Of a stretch of 64,000 bases of DNA, positions 26,539 through 64,000 are shown piece after piece. The stretch's first letter is position 1. Every line of letters starts with the position of its first letter. Origin of the DNA: Pristiophorus japonicus (Eukaryota); NCBI RefSeq assembly GCF_044704955.1, contig NC_091984.1:128278001-128342000 (forward strand), read 5' to 3'. The notes below the pieces were generated by a model. The model did no database searches and was not told the origin of the DNA. It saw nothing but the letters and a program-made list of their open reading frames with translations. A program made the position numbers and the translations under genes.

Positions 26539-28243
26539 CATAGAAACATAGAAATATAGAAAATAGGTGCAGGAGTAGGCCATTCAGCCTTTTGAGCCTG
26601 CACCACCATTCAATAAGATCATGGCTGATCATTCACTCAGTATCCCTTTCCTGCTTTCTCTCCATACCCCTTGATCCCCTTAGCCATAAGGGCCATATCT
26701 AACTCCTTCTTGAATATATTCAATGAACTGGCATCAACAACTCACCGTGGCAGGGAATTCCACAGGTTAGCAACTCTGAAGAAGTTTCTCCTCATCTCAG
26801 TCCTAAATGGCCTACCCCTTATCAGTTCAGTTTTGGTCTCCTAATCGGAGGAAGGATGTTCTTGCTATTGAGGGAGTGCAGCGAAGGTTCACCAGACTGA
26901 TTCCCGGGATGGCAGGACTCACATATGAGGAGAGACTGGATCAACTCTCCTGGTTCTGGACTTCCCCAACATCGGGAACATTCTACCCGCATCTAACCTG
27001 TCCCCGTCCCATCAGAATCTTATATGTTTCTATGAGATCCCCCCCTCATCCTTCTAAACTCCAATGTATAAAGGTCCAGTTGATCCAGTCTCTCCTCATA
27101 TGTCAGTCCTGCCATCCTGGGAATCAGTATGGTGAACCTTCGCTGCACTTCCTCAATAGCAAGAACATCCTTCCTCCGATTAGGAGACCAAAACTGAACA
27201 CAATATTCCAGGTGAGGCCTCACCAAGGCCCTGTACAACTGCAGTAAGACTTTCCTGCTCCTACACACAAATCCCCTAGCTATGAAGGCCAACATACCAT
27301 TTGCCGCCTTCACCGCCTGCTGTACCTGCATGCCAACTTTCAATGACTGATGAACCATGGTACCCAGGTCTCGTTGCACCTCCCCTTTTTCTAATCTGTC
27401 GCCATTCAGATAATATTCTGTCTTCGCGTTTTTGCCCCCAAAGTGGATAACCTCACATTTATCCACATTATACTGCATCTGCCATGCATTTGCCCACTCA
27501 CCTAACCTGTCCAAGTCACCCTGCAGCCTCCTAGCGTCCCCCTCACAGCTCACACCGCCAACCAGTTTAGTGTCATTTGCAAACTTGGAGATATTACACT
27601 CAATTCCTTCATCCAAATCATTGATGTATGTTGTAAATAGCTGGGGTCCCAGCACTGAGCCCTGTGGCACTCCACTAGTCACTGCCTGCCATTCTGAAAA
27701 GGACCCGTTTATCCCGATTCTTTGCTTCCTGTCTGCCAACCAGTTCTCTATCCACATCAGTATATTACCCCCAATGCCATGTGCTTTGATTTTGCACACC
27801 AATCTCTTGTGTGGGACCTTGTCAAAAGCCTTTTGAAAGTCCAAATACACCACATCCACTGGTTCTCCCTTGTCCACTCTACTAGTTACATCCTCAAAAA
27901 ATTCCAGAAGATTTGTCAAGCATGATTTCCCCTTCATAAATCCATGCTGACTTGGATCGATCCTGTCACTGCTTTCCAAATGCACTGCTATTTCATCCTT
28001 AATAATTGATTCCAACATTTTCCCCATTACCGATGTCAGGCTAACCGGTCTATAATTACCCGCTTTCTCTCTCCCTCCCTTTTTAAAAAGTGGTGTTACA
28101 TTAGCTACCCTCCAATCCATAGGAACTGATCCAGAGTTGATCGACTGTTGGAAAATGATCACCAATGCACTCACTATTTCGAGGGCCACTTCCTTAAGTA
28201 ATCTGGGATGCAGACTATCAGGCCCCAGGGATTTATCGGCCTT
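26539..28243 (-). mobile_element. 5'-truncated CR1 LINE with RT domain
   Basis: NYRPVSLTS, YLDFQKAFDKVPH, SGVPQGSVLGP, FANDTK; tail ATAGAAACATAGAAA; carries an internal inverted duplication. Confidence 0.95.
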
Positions 28244-28895
28244 TTTATAATATGGCGACCAGAACTGTGCACTGTGCTCCAAGTGAGATCTAACCAAGGT
28301 TCAATACAGGTTCAGCATAACTTCTCCATTTTCAAATTTAACCCTCTAAAAATAAACCTTAATGCTTGGTTTGCTTTTTAAATGACCTCATTGACCAGGG
28401 TTACAACGTTTAGTGATTTGTGTATTTGCACTCCCTTTGCTCCCCTACTCCATTTAGATTCTTTTTTTCCAAGTAATATGTGACCTCCTTGTTTTTCTTA
28501 CCAAAATATATTACCTCACATCTCACACTTACCTATGTTGAAATTCATTTGCCAATTATATGCCCACTCTTCAAGTTTATTAATGTGTTCTTGTAATTTG
28601 TTGCTGTCGTCCTCCTCAGTGTTACCAATCTCTCCCAATTTGATGTTGTCTGCAAATTTAGAAATTGTATTTTTGATTACAAAGTCTAAATTGTTAATAT
28701 AAATTGGTAACAACAGTGGTCCCAGCACTGATCCTGGTGGAACCCCACTTCCCACCTTCTGCCACTGTGCATAGCTACCCTTCACCCCTACTCTCTGCTT
28801 TTTGTCTTGCAGCCAGCGAGCTAACAATTCTGCTACTTGTCCCCTGACTCCGCGCGTTATTCATGAGTCTATTATGTGGCACCTTATCTAAGGCC
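28244..28895 (-). mobile_element. Older CR1 RT fragment
   Basis: SGVPPGSVLGPLL..INNLD..SKFADN. Confidence 0.8.
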
Positions 28896-54190: not shown

Positions 54191-54379
54191 TAACGGTGTT
54201 ATGATAGGAATGCTAGTTTTTTTTTAAAAACCCAAGCAGTGAGATTGGACAGGGTGTAGGTGCTATCAGCCTGATTAAACTGAGTATATTTTTACGAAAG
54301 ATAGCTAGATATTAAAGTACTGGAAAATCTTTGAAGATTCTTTTATCCACATCCCCCCCGCCCCAGCCCCCACCAGAAC

Positions 54380-55712
54380 AAAACTCTTCCCCTTTCCCCC
54401 CCCATCAAAACTCTAACCTTGCCCCTCCCCCATCAAAACTCCTCCTCTCCCCACTTTCCCCATCAAACTCTCCCCCTCCCTCCCATCAAAACTCTCCCCC
54501 TCCCTCCCATCAAAACTCTCCCCCTCCCTCCCATCAAAACTCTCCCCCTCCCTCCCATCAAAACTCTCCCCCTCCCTCCCATCAAAACTCTCCCCCTCCC
54601 TCCCATCAACACTCTCCCCCTCCCTCCCATCAAAACTCTCCCCCTCCCTCCCATCAAAACTCTCCCCCTCCCTCCCATCAAAACTCTCCCCCTCCCTCCC
54701 ATCAAAACTCTCCCCCTCCCTCCCATCAAAACTCTCTCCTTCCCTCCCATCAAAACTCTCCCCCTCCCTCCCATCAAAACTCTCCCTCTCCCTCCCATCA
54801 AAACTCTCCCCCTCCCTCCCATCAAAACTCTCCCCCTCCCTCCCATCAAAACTCTCCCCCTCCCTCCCATCAAAACTCTCCCCCTCCCTCCCATCAAAAC
54901 TCTCCCCCTCCCTCCCATCAAAACTCTCCCCCTCCCTCCCATCAAAACTCTCCCCCTCCCTCCCATCAAAACTCTCCCCCTCCCTCCCATCAAAACTCTC
55001 CCCCTCCCTCCCATCAAAACTCTCCCCCTCCCTCCCATCAAAACTCTCCCCCTCCCTCCCATCAAAACTCTCCCCCTCCCTCCCATCAAAACTCTCCCCC
55101 TCCCTCCCATCAAAACTCTCCCCCTCCCTCCCATCAAAACTCTCCCCCTCCCTCCCATCAAAACTCATCACCCCTCCCCCCATCAAAACTCTTCTCCTCC
55201 CCCATCAAAACTCTTCCCCTCCCCCATCAAAACTCTTCCCCTCCCCCATCAAAACTCTTCCCCTCCCCTATCAAAACTCTTCCCCTCCTCCCATCAAAAC
55301 TCTTCCCCTCCCCCCATCAAAACTCTTCCCCTCCCCCCATCAAAACTCTTCCCCTCCCCCATCAAAACACTTCCCCTCCCCCCATCAAAACTCTTCCCCT
55401 CCCCCCATCAAAATTCTTCCCCTCCCCCCATCAAAACTCTTCCCCTCCCCCCAGCAAAACTCTTCCCCTCCCCCCATCAAAACTCTTCCCCTCCCCCCAT
55501 CAAAACTCTTCCCCTCCCCCCATCAAAACTCTTCCCCTCCCCCCATCAAAACTCTTCCCCTCCCCCCATCAAAACTCATCACCCCTGCCCCCATCAAAAC
55601 TCTACCCCACCCCCCATCAAAACTCTTCCCCTCCCTCACCATCAAAACTCTTCCCCTCCCCCGCAAAGTCTTCCCCTCACCTCCCCATCAAAACTCTTCC
55701 CCCCCCCCCCCC
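54380..55712. repeat. Minisatellite: 24-bp CCATCAAAACTCTCCCCCTCCCTC (~29 copies, 54460-55165) then 22-23-bp variants
   Basis: Directly visible tandem array; accounts for the four long low-complexity ORFs. Confidence 0.97.
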
Positions 55713-55806
55713 CGCCATCAACCTGTCTCTTTGTAGTCCTCAGCGTGGGGAGACAGTGGCCGGCCTGTGCAGCAGGTCACTCAGCCCGAGATAGGGGCGA
55801 CGAACA

Positions 55807-56350
55807 GGCTGGCCTCCCACATTCTACCCTCCGTAAACTAGAAGTGATCCAAAACTCGGCTGCTCGTGTCCCAACTCACCAATTCCCGCTCTTTTATCAC
55901 CCCTGTGCTCACTGACTTACATTGGCTCCCGGTTAATCAATGCCTCAATTTCAAAATTCTTATCCTTGTTTTCAAATCCCTCCATGTCCTCACCCCTCCC
56001 GATCTCTGTAATCTCCTCCAGCCCCACAACCCCTTGAGGTGTCTGCGCTTCTCGAATTCTGCCCTCCTGAGCATCCCTGATTATAATCGCTCAACCATTT
56101 GTGTCCGTGCCTTCTGTTGCCTCGGCCCCAAGCTCTGGAACTCCCTGCCTAAACCTCTCCACCTCTCTATCTCTCTTTCCTCCTTCAAGATGCTCCTTAA
56201 AACATACCTTTTGACCAAGCTTTTGGTCACCTGCGCTAATTTCTACTCATGCAGCTCGGTGTCAAATTTTTTATCTCACAATACTCCTGTGCGCCTTGGG
56301 ACGTTTCGTTACATTAAAGGCGCTATATAAATTCATTTTGTCGTTGTTGT
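55807..56350 (+). mobile_element. L2 LINE 3' fragment
   Basis: KLEVIQNSAARV..ITPVLTDLHWLPV..FKILILVFKSL. Confidence 0.92.
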
Positions 56351-58410: not shown

Positions 58411-58969
58411 TTTCATAACAGTGACAAGAATTCAAAAGCAGTTGAAGCAAATGGTTTGGAGCTCTGAAGAATTAAAACGTGTTTTTTTTAAATTACATAG
58501 ATCGGAATATTGGTGGAACTGATGTAAGGGGGTGGTCTCTATGAGGGGGTCAGGTTCCCTTCTGACCAACCTGAGCGGTTCGAATCGCTCCCACTCCCTT
58601 GGGTTCTGTACTCTGGATTTATTTGGGACAAAAGTGCAAAGGACACTGGTTTGATGCAAAAGAACTTTGTTTTTATTATAGTCAAAGTAATACATGCTTA
58701 TTACTCTCGTAAGAAAATACAAGGCCAAACTTACAATCACTCTAATAAAGGACAGTACAAGGAAAGGTACAAGGTCAAACTTAAAATCACTCCAATAAGG
58801 AACCATGCACTACACATTCAAAGGGGGTTACAGTAAATTATACCTCCCACCTCCCAATACCTAATTCTAGCTAGGTTAGACTCCAGGGCAGGCAAGGACT
58901 ATGCTTACCAATCCTTTTGATAGTTAACGATAGATTGCGGTTATTTTTCTCTTGATACCACGTTGACTG

Positions 58970-61078
58970 AATGGATGAATTACAACAATTGTACATTCCT
59001 GTCTGGCGTAAAAATAAAAAAGGGAAGGTGGCTCAACCGTGGCTATCTAGGGAAATCAGGGATAGTATTAAAGCCAAGGAAATGGCATACAAATTGGCCA
59101 GAAATAGCAGCGAACCTGGGGACTGGGAGAAATTTAGAACTCAGCAGAGGAGGACAAAGGGTTTGATTAGGGCAGGGAAAATGGAGTACGAGAAGAAGCT
59201 TGCAGGGAACATTAAGGCGGATTGCAAAAGTTTCTATAGGTATGCAAAGAGAAAAAGGTTAGTAAAGACAAACGTAGGTCCCCTGCAGTCAGAATCAGGG
59301 GAAGTCATAACGGGGAACAAAGAAATGGCAGACCAATTGAACAAGTACTTTGGTTCAGTATTCACTAAGGAGGACACAAACAACCTTCCGGATATAAAAG
59401 TGGTCAGAGGGTCTATTAAGGAGGAGGAACTGAGGGAAATCTTTATTAGTCGGGAAATTGTGTTGGGGAAATTGATGGGATTGAAGGCCGATAAATCCCC
59501 AGGGCCTGATGGACTGCATCCCAGAGTACTTAAGGAGGTGGCCTTGGAAATAGCGAATGCATTGACAGTCATTTTCCAACATTCTATTGACTCTGGATCA
59601 GTTCCTATCGAGTGGAGGGTAGCCAATGTAACCCCACTTTTTAAAAAAGGAGGGAGAGAGAAAGCAGGGAATTATAGACCGGTCAGCCTGACCTCAGTAG
59701 TGGGTAAAATGATGGAATCAATTGTTAAGGATGTCATAGCAACGCATTTGGAAAATGGTGACATGATAGGTCCAAGTCAGCATGGATTTGTGAAAGGGAG
59801 ATCATGCTTGACAAATCTTCTGGAATTTTTTGAGGATGTTTCCAATAAAGTGGACAAAGGAGTACCAGTTGATGTGGTATATTTGGACTTTCAGAAGGCT
59901 TTCGACAAGGTCCCACACAGGAGATTAATGTGCAAAGTTAAAGCACATGGGATTGGGGGTAGTGTGCTGACGTGGATTGAGAACTGGTTGTCAGACAGGA
60001 AACAAAGAGTAGGAGTAAATGGGTACTTTTCGGAATGGCAGGCAGTGACTAGTGGGGTACCGCAGGGTTCTGTGCTGGGGCCCCAGCTGTTTACATTGTA
60101 CATTAATGATTTAGACGAGGGGATTAAATGTAGTATCTCCAAATTTGCGGATGACACTAAGTTGGGTGGCAGTGTGAGCTGCGAGGAGGATGCTATGAGG
60201 CTACAGAGTGACTTGGATAGGTTAGGTGAGTGGGCAAATGCATGGCAGATGAAGTATAATGTGGATAAATGTGAGGTTATCCACTTTGGTGGTAAAAACA
60301 GAGAGACAGACTATTATCTGAATGGTGACAGATTAGGAAAAGGGAAGGTGCAACGAGACCTGGGTGTCATGGTACATCAGTCATTGAAGGTTGGCATGCA
60401 GGTACAGCAGGCGGTTAAGAAAGCAAATGGCATGTTGGCCTTCATAGCGAGGGGATTTGAGTACAGGGGCAGGGAGGTGTTGCTACAGTTGTACAGGGCC
60501 TTGGTGAGGCCACACCTGGAGTATTGTGTACAGTTTTGGTCTCCTAACTTGAGGAAGGACATTCTTGCTATTGAGGGAGTGCAGCGAAGATTCACCAGAC
60601 TGATTCCCGGGATCTATCAAGAAAGACTGGATCAACTGGGCTTGTATTCACTGGAGTTCAGAAGAGTGAGAGGGGACCTCATAGAAACGTTTAAAATTCT
60701 GACGGGTTTGGACAGGTTGGATGCAGGAAGAATGTTCCCAATGTTGGGGAAGTCCAGAACCAGGGTCACAGTCTAAGGATAAGGGGTAAGCCATTTAGGA
60801 CCGAGATAAGGAGAAACTTCTTCACCCAGAGAGTGGTGAACCTGTGGAATTCTCTACCACAGGAAGTAGTTGAGGCCAATTCACTAAATATATTCAAAAG
60901 GGAGTTTGATGAAGTCCTTACTACTCGGGGGATCAAGGGTTATGGCGTGAAAGCAGGAAGTGGGTACTGAAGTTTCATATTCAGCCATGAACTCATTGAA
61001 TGGCGGTGCAGGCTAGAAGGGCTGAATGGCCTGCTCCTGCACCTATTTTCTATGTTTCTATGTTTCTATGTTTCTATG
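58970..61078 (+). mobile_element. Young 5'-truncated CR1 LINE inserted in the LTR
   Basis: (TTTCTATG)4 tail; TGACTG duplicated at 58964-58969 and 61077-61082. Confidence 0.97.
58971..60776 (+). CDS. CR1 ORF2 partial, reverse transcriptase domain intact, endonuclease missing
   Basis: 601-aa open frame with KSPGPDG, NYRPVSLTS, YLDFQKAFDKVPH, GVPQGSVLGP, FADDTK; small deletion and terminal frameshift near the C-terminus. Confidence 0.9.
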   Translation: MDELQQLYIPVWRKNKKGKVAQPWLSREIRDSIKAKEMAYKLARNSSEPGDWEKFRTQQRRTKGLIRAGKMEYEKKLAGNIKADCKSFYRYAKRKRLVKTNVGPLQSESGEVITGNKEMADQLNKYFGSVFTKEDTNNLPDIKVVRGSIKEEELREIFISREIVLGKLMGLKADKSPGPDGLHPRVLKEVALEIANALTVIFQHSIDSGSVPIEWRVANVTPLFKKGGREKAGNYRPVSLTSVVGKMMESIVKDVIATHLENGDMIGPSQHGFVKGRSCLTNLLEFFEDVSNKVDKGVPVDVVYLDFQKAFDKVPHRRLMCKVKAHGIGGSVLTWIENWLSDRKQRVGVNGYFSEWQAVTSGVPQGSVLGPQLFTLYINDLDEGIKCSISKFADDTKLGGSVSCEEDAMRLQSDLDRLGEWANAWQMKYNVDKCEVIHFGGKNRETDYYLNGDRLGKGKVQRDLGVMVHQSLKVGMQVQQAVKKANGMLAFIARGFEYRGREVLLQLYRALVRPHLEYCVQFWSPNLRKDILAIEGVQRRFTRLIPGIYQERLDQLGLYSLEFRRVRGDLIETFKILTGLDRLDAGRMFPMLGKSRTRVTV

Positions 61079-62311
61079 ACTGTGGTCGGTCACTGCTGCA
61101 ATGGTGATGTTCTTCCTTCCTTCAGGACTTCAGGACTTCAGGACTTCGAGGCTGGAGAAGTTAGTTTACTGTTGCATTGGTTTCTCTCCTTGTCGTGATG
61201 ACATACTCGCAGTATAGCACCTGGTGTAGTATGGCATTGGAGGCAGCCTTGTAGCTATCTAGCAACCACCTAACCTCTGTTGAAAACAGGGACCAGTTAT
61301 ACGATTTCAGGGTTCAATCCTGGCGCCAAATCAGTTCAAAATCCTTTGTATAATTTTGGCGGGCTTGGTTCTTCTTTGTAATGTTTTGTTAGGCTTGTTA
61401 AAAGTTGATATGTTTTGGGTGAGTTGATGTTCGAAAACTGTTTCCTGATGGAAATATTAGTTTGGTAATTGCAATGTCCTTTTGTGCTTAGTCTTTCGCA
61501 TACAATGCGATTGCGCCTCTTTGTGATGTATATGCTGAAATGGTTGTCCAGACCCATGTTGATGGGTAGCTACCTCTGGGTGATTTTGTGATGTTAATGT
61601 CTCTTGTGGAGAAGGATTTTCGAATACTCATCCCTCCAGACAGGTTAACTTAGTCCTCACACCCAGGTAGCTTCACTTAATTAGACTGTCTGCTGAAGTG
61701 ATTCTGTAGGTCCGGCCACAGCCTTAAGTTTGTCTTTTAAAATCCAATATTCTATTAAAGTTCATTGTTTTTTCCATAAGCACTTTAGAGTTCCAAACTT
61801 TTCGGTAGATAGTCCCAAATTAAATTTCCTTTTGAATGAGCCCAAACATTGGGGGGAGTTTCTTGTGAATTTTGCATTCCTTCATTCCCCTCTGTTGACA
61901 CTCCATACTCTTGAGTGTCAATCAAGGTAAGCAAAATTCCTGCTCCCGAGAGCCAACCTTCCCTGCATTTATACCAACTAAACATTACCCTGCATCCCCT
62001 GTTGAAATGCAAATGCAATTTACAGGCGAATACAGTCGTTACAATTCGGTTGCAGTATAGAGAGGGTATCATGTCCCTCTTTTATTTAATTTTCATAGTG
62101 GAATAACGGTACATGGCCAAACACAGTTCTAAGTAAAACAAGTAAAAGCACATAGTCAAACACATTCTCAAGTATTTTAAAGGTCCATAGTCAAACACAT
62201 TTTAAGTTCAGTACAAAGTCAAAACATTTCAAGAAACACTCTCACAATACTTGAGATTTTGCGGTTTACAGCAGGTAAAATTAAACACAAATGAAACATG
62301 GTAGTATGGTG

Positions 62312-63936
62312 TCACCCCCTCCCTGCGTGATTCCCCAGTTCAGCCAAGGAGCATACAGCACCCTTTGGTGCCTGATCTGACGGCCTCTGCGTTTTACTCA
62401 GCAAGTGAGACACCATAAGTAAAGTATAATCGCGAGTTGACAAATAACTAAAGTATGGGAAGCGATTCTGATCCAGACTGGGACTTCTATATTTCTGAAA
62501 AGGTCCCACCAAGGCGGAATGGTGATCTCAAGAATCTTTTTCCCTATCTCAATGGTTTTTTGTTCTAGAGTATAGAAGTGTTTTTGTGAGATAATTACAG
62601 CTTTTAGCAGAGCGGTAAGATGTTCGGGTAGAGGGGGAATTGCATAGCCAAAATGTACAACATAATCCGGCAGGTTTGTAATGTTTTCCTTCAGTGAGGT
62701 GGACAGTGGAGGGTTCAGGAATGGGGACAATCCGTTCCTGGGCCACTTGAACTGATGCCCCAGGTTTGAAGCAAAAACTGCTGTCACTCACCGGACACCA
62801 GAAGTGTCCATGCTGGTAGTGGGGTGCACTGGTGGTGACACAATATGTCCCACCCCCTATGTATGTTACCTGTGGAGGGACAGGGTCTTGTGCAATTACC
62901 TCCATGATGCAGTTAATAGGCTGTATACCAGCAGCTTTAAACCCACACTGTGACTTAGAATGGGCACTCAAGTACTGGGGACACAGTATTACGTGGGCAC
63001 CCTGTCTCTGACACCCGGAGAGGTCAGTACCCGTTACAGCGTGCTCCCACTTTATAACATAGGGTGGGACCGCTGCGAAACGAATGTGTGCACCTCCCTG
63101 AATATCTCCAATGTTTTCCACCCGGTATACCGGTGCAGATCGAGCTCTCCCACCCATGACCGGCATTCTTAATACTATTCCCATAATGGTGTGGTTAGAT
63201 TTCCCACAGTCTACTGGGACAGGATAGGCTTCAGAGGCTAAGTGGAGCTGGCACAGGCTTAGTGAATTGCTGTTACGGGTGGAGGGCTGCGAGGTGCTTG
63301 TTCCTGATCCAAGAGGAGACTACACCTTGTTTTAAATCCTTCAGGTTGTTGCGGTCCTTGCCCAACCACCATGCCCCATACAGTACGCACACCTCGTTCT
63401 GTGCAGCCTGGTCAGAAGCGTTTCTATCCTCCCGCATTCACTGTCTGTGCATGTTTTTCCAGCTCAGCCACAATTTCTTTTAAATGGACAATCATAGCCT
63501 GGTCCTCGTGTCGTTCTAATCCTACTACAGTGTTCTCCTGTTTCAGGATTTTTCACAATTGGATCTTTAAACTGTTTATCTGTGTTTGCAGTTCTATGTC
63601 ATCTAGGCTATTTATTATAGAGGATGCTCTATTGTAGGTAGTGAAAACATCGTTTATGATTCCTCTTCTAGGTCTCCCCGAGCCCTTGGTATCCTTAGCG
63701 TTTAGGGTGTATAGGTCTGCTTTGTCTACATTTCCAAAGTCTAACTCATAAAATTTCTTGAACATGTCTCTAAGTAGGGCCTGGTATAGCAGCTCTGTTT
63801 CCTTCGGATACCATGCAGGTAGGTGTACCTCGGTAAGGTTTAATATCACTGAAGCTACTGCATAATGTACCCCCTGGTAGAACACCTTTTCAGTCGGTAC
63901 CAATACTAATCCATTTCCAGGTCCCTTGGTGCTGGT
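62312..63936 (-). pseudogene. env: Retroviral-like envelope / class I F-type fusion glycoprotein, disrupted
   Basis: Furin site RPRR|GIINDVF (63675-63664), heptad repeat, Cys-rich region VENIG..DLSGCQRQ..ILC..QCG..NC..GTYCV, C-terminal heptad, TM segment IASHTLVICQLAIILYLWCL; several stops and ~3 frameshifts. Confidence 0.85.
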
Positions 63937-64000
63937 AGTTAGATGTAGTCCTTACTACTAGGGGGATCAAGGGGTATAGCGAGAAAGCAGGAATGGGGTA
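63937..64000 (+). mobile_element. CR1 3' fragment inserted in env (cut by window edge)
   Basis: Matches 60903-60966 (AGTCCTTACTACT.GGGGGATCAAGGG.TAT). Confidence 0.85.

Follow-up and report, generated by a model that had tools for sequence, protein, structure and literature searches.

A broken shark env from a high-copy provirus, likely of the snakehead-retrovirus clade, with a predicted F-type core and a probable Ig-like N-terminal module

Does the broken env on the minus strand at 62312..63936 encode a retroviral fusion protein that does without a receptor-binding domain, and from which retroviral lineage does it come? The locus lies at one end of the window, the whole 64-kb stretch that was analyzed (G000:C8:128278001-128342000). 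A sequence-only reading had described it as a compact F-type fusogen, beginning at 63936, from a lokiretrovirus- or foamy-related lineage. We favor, with a probability of roughly 70%, a different answer: it is the broken env of a full, high-copy provirus, likely of the snakehead retrovirus (SnRV, class III) clade, whose predicted F-type Env is headed at the N-terminus by a module that is probably Ig-like and likely receptor-binding. Features beyond the window edge are given in the coordinates of the neighboring stretch L021, in which a position equals the window position minus 63000.

The segment at 62312..63936 is an F-type env core in pseudogene form, comprising F2, a furin site (RPRR), fusion peptide, HRA, Cys-rich domains, HRB, TM and tail; the fold was assigned by way of another copy in the same genome that is naturally free of stops. 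All motifs first quoted for the segment were recovered on the minus strand, spread over three frames: RPRR, GIINDVFTTY, LKDLKQGVVSSWI, a second heptad, a TM and a basic tail, together with VENIG..PPYVI..DLSGCQRQ..VILC..QCG..NC..QVTYIGGGTYCV. The segment spans about 540 codons, with ∼90 between 63936 and RPRR; the furin site is followed by GIIND, and the TM helix is present in both sequence and model. Relative to the stop-free copy there are three frameshifts, near 63435, 63273 and 62695, and at least two in-frame stops, near 63551 and 62396. The TM had been said to lack the ISD and CX6CC signatures, and indeed none of the four natural long env frames tested contained a CX6CC, CX6C or ISD-like motif.

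Position 63936, taken at first for the start of the protein, is instead the point at which a LINE 3′ end interrupts the gene. The first 63 bases of this insert occupy 63938..64000 on the plus strand; the whole piece, ∼155 bases, runs past the window edge, and its match to the window LINE places the complete insert at ∼L021:938-1095. It matches the LINE at 60904-61058 (3′ end, 91% identity) and is itself one of 11 LINE 3′ end matches in the window; from its TTCTATG-type tail we take it to be CR1-like. Beyond the insert, env continues on the minus strand for ∼147 codons (L021:1101-1541, 88% identity to another copy), which encode the probable Ig-like module and a Pro/Thr linker. A gap in the blastn alignment marks a deletion of ∼750 bases, by which the window copy lost the signal peptide and the first ∼70 residues. 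A receptor-binding part appeared to be absent because the window edge hides the front end of env, where a likely one is encoded. The window copy is dead, with frameshifts, stops, two LINE insertions and one deletion, and 62312-63936 is a real feature that was misread at its front end.

The env belongs to a full gag-pol-env provirus on the minus strand, with pol at about L021:2358-5588, gag-position frames at about L021:5700-7563 and the 5′ LTR at L021:7548-8817. At the other end, a polypurine tract, AGAGGGGAA, at 61885..61893 adjoins a 3′ LTR that is split in two. Its first part (61077..61884) starts with TG and is 90.9% identical to the 5′ LTR over 831 columns; its second part (58523..58969) ends with CA and is 93.0% identical over 455 columns. 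Between them lies a 2.1 kb LINE fragment on the plus strand (58970..61076) with an RT frame of 601 aa at 58971-60773 (RVT_1, E 1e-33). The 4-base target duplication TCAG stands next to the 3′ LTR end at 58523. A TGGCG primer-binding-like site follows the 5′ LTR, and other copies show TGGCGAC-type sites, which may correspond to tRNA-Arg, the primer ascribed to SnRV; the 64-kb window contains no tRNA genes. The ∼430 bases from env to the 3′ LTR contain no frame of 100 aa or more, and hence no foamy-like accessory gene. Divergence between the two LTRs amounts to 5.4% (67 of 1245 ungapped columns), which corresponds to ∼12 million years at the mammalian rate of PMC7947760 and to a greater age if shark rates are slower.

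Several other elements were seen nearby. A second, different F-type env, also a member of the wider env family, lies upstream of the 5′ LTR (L021:9185-10000 continuing into L022:1-1120) and ends ∼370 bases from it; it is 70% identical to the relative P0069 and ∼27% identical to the window family env, and has a shorter, Cys-rich N-terminal module. Within the window, a low-complexity tandem repeat at 54316-55912 (GC skew -0.75) produces spurious long Pro/Ser-rich frames, and a LINE RT frame of 426 aa is located at 27023-28300 on the minus strand.

The element is a member of a high-copy endogenous retrovirus family. A search by DNA likeness of the 5.9-Gb assembly yielded 4294 first-look candidates, and the 40 that were scored full-length are 91-100% identical. 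A protein search gave 69 rows, six of them without an internal stop, one of these six being a short partial match. Stop-free frames of 600-767 codons, candidates for the intact paralogues whose search had been suggested as a check, exist in the genome. The named relatives come from sawshark, skate, catshark, smooth-hound, bamboo shark and horn shark, and then from frogs, in agreement with the cartilaginous-fish lineage originally proposed. Several proviral copies are split by other retroelements or internally duplicated (L024, L025, L028, L053 and L054).

To place the Env structurally, a natural 767-residue frame was modeled from a 39-row alignment (mean pLDDT 61.6, pTM 0.42). Foldseek returned the F proteins of hPIV3, RSV, NDV and henipavirus, with a best E of 1.5e-9 (hPIV3 F) and 158 matches at E≤0.001; foamy Env (8rm1) appeared at rank 44 with E 1.8e-5. 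VIA matched the model to Langya F (Z 12.8, rmsd 5.7, 316 residues aligned), and the rmsd to F is 5-6 Å at best. In ESM Atlas, Fusion_gly and Baculo_F clusters ranked top (0.92), and the best BFVD rows include the WEHV-1 and WDSV Envs (E 5e-12 and 9e-11). By sequence alone, neither Env proteins nor Env profiles had a PDB match below E 0.05. The Env is therefore predicted to be a class Ib (F-type) fusion protein with domains I-III and HRA/HRB in nested order. The F-type fold and F2-F1 layout of the sequence-only reading are thereby upheld, with paramyxovirus and pneumovirus F on top in both structure searches and foamy Env weaker. Its likeness to foamy TM also stands, at 90.8% and E 1.2e-6 by hhalign on the quoted Cys-rich segment (profile of 17 foamy Envs). 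It holds too that no insert of the foamy type precedes the furin site, which lies only ∼90 residues from the start of F2. The structural alignments begin at model residue ∼223 and F residue ∼26-38, so the F protein starts where the 62312..63936 segment itself starts, and some 220 N-terminal residues are extra.

These extra residues were not expected of an Env described as lacking a receptor-binding domain. The full-length Env of the family has ∼790 residues, ∼240 of which precede the start at 63936 and thus lie upstream of the LINE insertion. The layout is a signal peptide, ∼70 residues, an Ig-like domain, a Cys/Trp stretch, a Pro/Thr linker and then F2 (∼90 residues). Among 20 copies, the best 20 of 41 matches to the downstream env part alone with the window locus included, the Ig-like region is kept in 19 and the signal-peptide region in 18. 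The N-terminal region is 54-71% identical to that of shark and skate relatives, and the F core 48-77%. The module contains the Ig-type pattern VxVxEGxxVxLxC..W..GxYxC, and Pfam Ig_3 matched relatives P0092 (E 0.0027) and P0074 (E 0.0085), both below the cut-off; with a threshold of E≤1, Pfam assigned no family to four env frames of other copies, to the upstream frame of the window copy or to two window frames. In ESM Atlas, all ten of the best named matches to the module belong to one family or clan, which is Ig in the named rows shown (0.90-0.91), and three unnamed mollusc clusters rank ahead of them. A separate model of the module is mostly beta, with six strands in residues 72-155, and poor (mean pLDDT 36.8); its best structural match is a beta-sandwich at background level (Z 5.6), which speaks neither for nor against an Ig fold. 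Overall, we regard the module as probably Ig-like, the fold being a prediction.

The wider env family carries dissimilar N-terminal modules of ∼130-500 residues at the same place. P0075 has a V-set-like domain at its N-terminus (E 0.045), P0058 bears the UniRef name 'Ig-like', and P0057 and P0069 have a Cys-rich module. In a frog relative, one gene model joins pol to the beginning of an Ig-bearing env, which shares 41% identity with P0075. Profile comparison of the module alignment, which was untrimmed and shallow, with the N-termini of P0075, SnRV Env and P0058 gave no match. In P0085 (584 aa) the F2 motif already lies at residue 23, which leaves no N-terminal module; this protein also lacks an RxK/RR site and is sister (99/100) to the Ig-bearing P0075; judged by its sequence, a module-less state exists within the wider env family.

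A receptor-binding role for the module is reasonably likely. From the predicted F fold we infer a trimeric Env that mediates membrane fusion. Furin would cleave the trimer; the module, anchored to F2, would bind a cell-surface receptor and trigger or position the F core; and F1 may then refold to a six-helix bundle, much as paramyxovirus F and foamy Env do (PMC11468914). A different role, which we consider unlikely, is that the N-terminal region is a shield, a chaperone or an immune decoy, or is not Ig-like, and that entry proceeds by the F core as in lokiretroviruses. The poor fold evidence for the module (pLDDT 36.8, Z 5.6) and the existence of lokiretrovirus Envs and P0085 without any module are consistent with such a role, but shark and skate relatives alike conserve the module, and its replacement by dissimilar modules of ∼130-500 residues in relatives resembles what is seen with exchangeable binding modules. 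Ig-like N-terminal receptor-binding domains are, moreover, described on gamma-type Env in 10.1101/2024.03.17.585361.

With gag-pol recovered beyond position 64000, the lineage could be addressed through reverse transcriptase. The family RT is 44% identical to that of SnRV, 35-37% to lokiretroviruses and 29-33% to foamy viruses. An RT tree of 30 rows and 240 columns was rooted on six Ty3/gypsy-type rows; it adds seven of 17 foamy-type loci and all three lokiretrovirus-type loci, 18 of 35 RT hits were left out, and its sampling does not extend to ERV-L/S, fish foamy-like ERVs, alpha-, beta-, delta- and lentiviruses or the WDSV RT. Lokiretroviruses (100/99) fall outside a retrovirus clade (100/98) that holds the window family, in agreement with the placement published in PMC7947760. 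Foamy viruses (100/100) and class I (100/99) each form a clade, and the window family lies outside both, and so outside the ordinary class I elements. It groups with SnRV and amphibian and coelacanth elements at 83/89, below the strong-support bar of the tool. An AU test rejected family plus lokiretroviruses (p=0.0086) and gave p=0.11 for family plus foamy viruses. The family RT motifs are LPQGFHNSP and QYVDD, versus PFGxxNSPA and IYVDD in the lokiretrovirus rows compared. After one match at 82%, the nearest Pol matches are coelacanth and frog proteins at 50-53%, annotated NYNRIN-like; pol has a dual RNase H, seen in P0006 as RT_RNaseH together with RNase_H. When viral contigs were scanned with the RT alignment, one of 30 candidates was confirmed, L059, and its RT reads identically to the SnRV row of the PMC7947760 supplement; a scan with a single RT found no relatives, and two RT trees that lacked lokiretrovirus and foamy rows did not place the window element. 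These results make it likely, on RT sequence, that the provirus belongs to the SnRV (class III) clade. Of the proposed lokiretrovirus or foamy affinity, the first part fell with the AU test, and the second, sisterhood with foamy viruses, retains p=0.11 while the best tree puts the element with SnRV. Membership in lokiretroviruses was rejected on the RT position outside their clade, the AU result (p=0.0086) and the ∼240 extra residues before F2.

Env comparisons give a different ranking from RT. The family profile scored 61-62 bits with lokiretrovirus Env, 25.6 with WDSV, up to 21.6 with foamy viruses and 18.5 with SnRV. By hhalign, lokiretrovirus Env was again the best-scoring Env (98.2%, E 5.6e-14, 357 columns), followed by WDSV (96.1%) and SnRV (87-91%, E 1e-6 to 4e-6, ∼290 columns); the foamy profile match covers only the Cys-rich TM segment. 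Lokiretrovirus Env was also the top single-sequence match for all four family members tested. A CP/EP..P..G motif opens F2 in SnRV (frame residue 519), WDSV (397) and lokiretroviruses (29), at 154-189 in five module-bearing relatives and, by eye, at ∼265 in P0015. Walleye Envs (L083:5962-9651, and Q9WHI8 and A4GTG3 in BFVD) match the F core. An Env-core tree of 15 rows did not separate lokiretroviruses, SnRV, WDSV and the window family, and carried a long-branch warning.

The Env ranking could mean that the provirus is a recombinant, with a snakehead-like gag-pol, a lokiretrovirus-type env and host Ig modules added later, in which case nothing would require an F-type Env to be ancestral in retroviruses. 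Retroviruses commonly exchange their Envs, and the lokiretrovirus Env scores best (98.2% over 357 columns, top for four of four members). The study 10.1101/2024.03.17.585361 reports transfers of receptor-binding domains between retroviral Envs. The F core is nevertheless shared by hhalign with the snakehead (90.8%) and walleye (96.1%) Envs, the latter matched in BFVD as well (WEHV-1 and WDSV); SnRV and walleye Envs are long branches whose lower scores may reflect rate; and the Env tree does not separate these groups, so that both ancestry and capture from a lokiretrovirus-like donor fit it. We judge a recombinant origin to have perhaps a minor chance. We give least credit to the reading of an Env that has no RBD in an element related to lokiretroviruses or foamy viruses; it fits the F fold, short F2, lokiretrovirus best Env match, foamy TM likeness and foamy grouping at p=0.11, yet runs against the module in 19 of 20 copies, the rejected lokiretrovirus RT grouping (p=0.0086) and the RT motifs.

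For the preferred reading, a broken env of an SnRV-clade provirus with an N-terminal module, we counted the LTRs, target duplication, polypurine tract, copy number, fold match, module in 19 of 20 copies, Ig signs and RT clade (83/89). Against it we counted the N-terminal pLDDT of 36.8 and Z of 5.6, the lack of a Pfam Ig hit on the family's own copies, modules that do not align with SnRV Env or P0075, the moderate RT clade, the foamy p=0.11, the pTM of 0.42 and a lokiretrovirus Env that outscores SnRV Env.

Known systems share some features with the family and differ in others. WDSV and WEHV (epsilonretrovirus) Envs likewise have an F core behind a ∼400-residue N-terminal region but add a long cytoplasmic extension; their RT we take to be class I. 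Gamma-type Env and class I ERVs differ in that the family has neither ISD nor CX6CC and its RT lies outside the class I clade. Paramyxovirus and pneumovirus F (PF00523) share the predicted fold and F2-F1 cleavage layout, but identity is ∼10% with no Pfam hit, and F, which lacks an N-terminal module, works alongside a separate attachment protein. SnRV Env is alike in its N-terminal extension, Pro/Thr stretch, CP..GP..G start of F2, furin site ∼100 residues on and Cys pattern; it differs in an env frame of 1134 codons, with ∼500 residues ahead of F2 and additional 3′ frames, against ∼240 residues, ∼790 aa in total and ∼430 bases from env to LTR in the window family, and the N-terminal modules do not align. 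According to PMC6001957 and PMC4422223, SnRV-like ERVs are already known across vertebrates (clade Huo, class III ERVs), and CmiERV lineage I of the elephant shark is such an element in a chimaera. Lokiretroviruses share the F-like Env core, the best-scoring one, and the dual RNase H in pol, which is common to all retroviruses, but their F2 comes right after the signal peptide (Wang and Han, PMC7947760); they are further marked by an integrase closest to CGIN1 and an optional smc gene. In Table S2 of that paper, the six cartilaginous-fish rows found bear no asterisk of the kind that appears to mark lokiretrovirus-positive genomes. Foamy Env shares the class Ib fold and the aligned TM segment (PMC11468914; PDB 8rm1) but has a ∼330-residue RBD between F2 and the furin site, where the window family has ∼90 residues and its extra module N-terminal. 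Coronavirus spike has binding domains at the N-terminal place where the window family has its module.

By these profile comparisons the F-type Env spans the lokiretrovirus, snakehead-like, walleye and foamy lineages, which differ in whether an accessory module is missing, placed in front or inserted. Because an element with a canonical-retroviral RT has an Env that aligns with lokiretrovirus (357 columns), snakehead, walleye and foamy Envs, an F-type Env in the common ancestor is favored. We offer tentatively, at rather less than even odds, that the F-type Env is ancestral in retroviruses: bare in lokiretroviruses, bearing exchangeable N-terminal modules in snakehead-like and walleye viruses (here a captured host Ig domain) and an insert before the furin site in foamy viruses, with gamma- and beta-type Env a later replacement and the shark family a young, high-copy record of the modular state inside canonical retroviruses. 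In the literature searched, neither an F fold nor an Ig domain is described for the Envs of SnRV, walleye viruses or shark elements; outside it lie two papers that may anticipate part of this, Wang, Chen and Cui 2023 on a foamy ERV of cartilaginous fish and Calcraft 2024 (Cell). The window family would be a retroviral example of an N-terminal accessory module on an F scaffold, a placement that PMC11468914 describes for coronavirus spike, and the gain and loss of modules can be tested on relatives that carry other modules or lack one. Env pieces were also found fused to host genes in gene models P0011, P0013, P0056 and P0081, by annotation artifact or exonization; the host partners are a Niban-like protein, a zinc finger, a protein that is cadherin-like by eye, and FBXO15.
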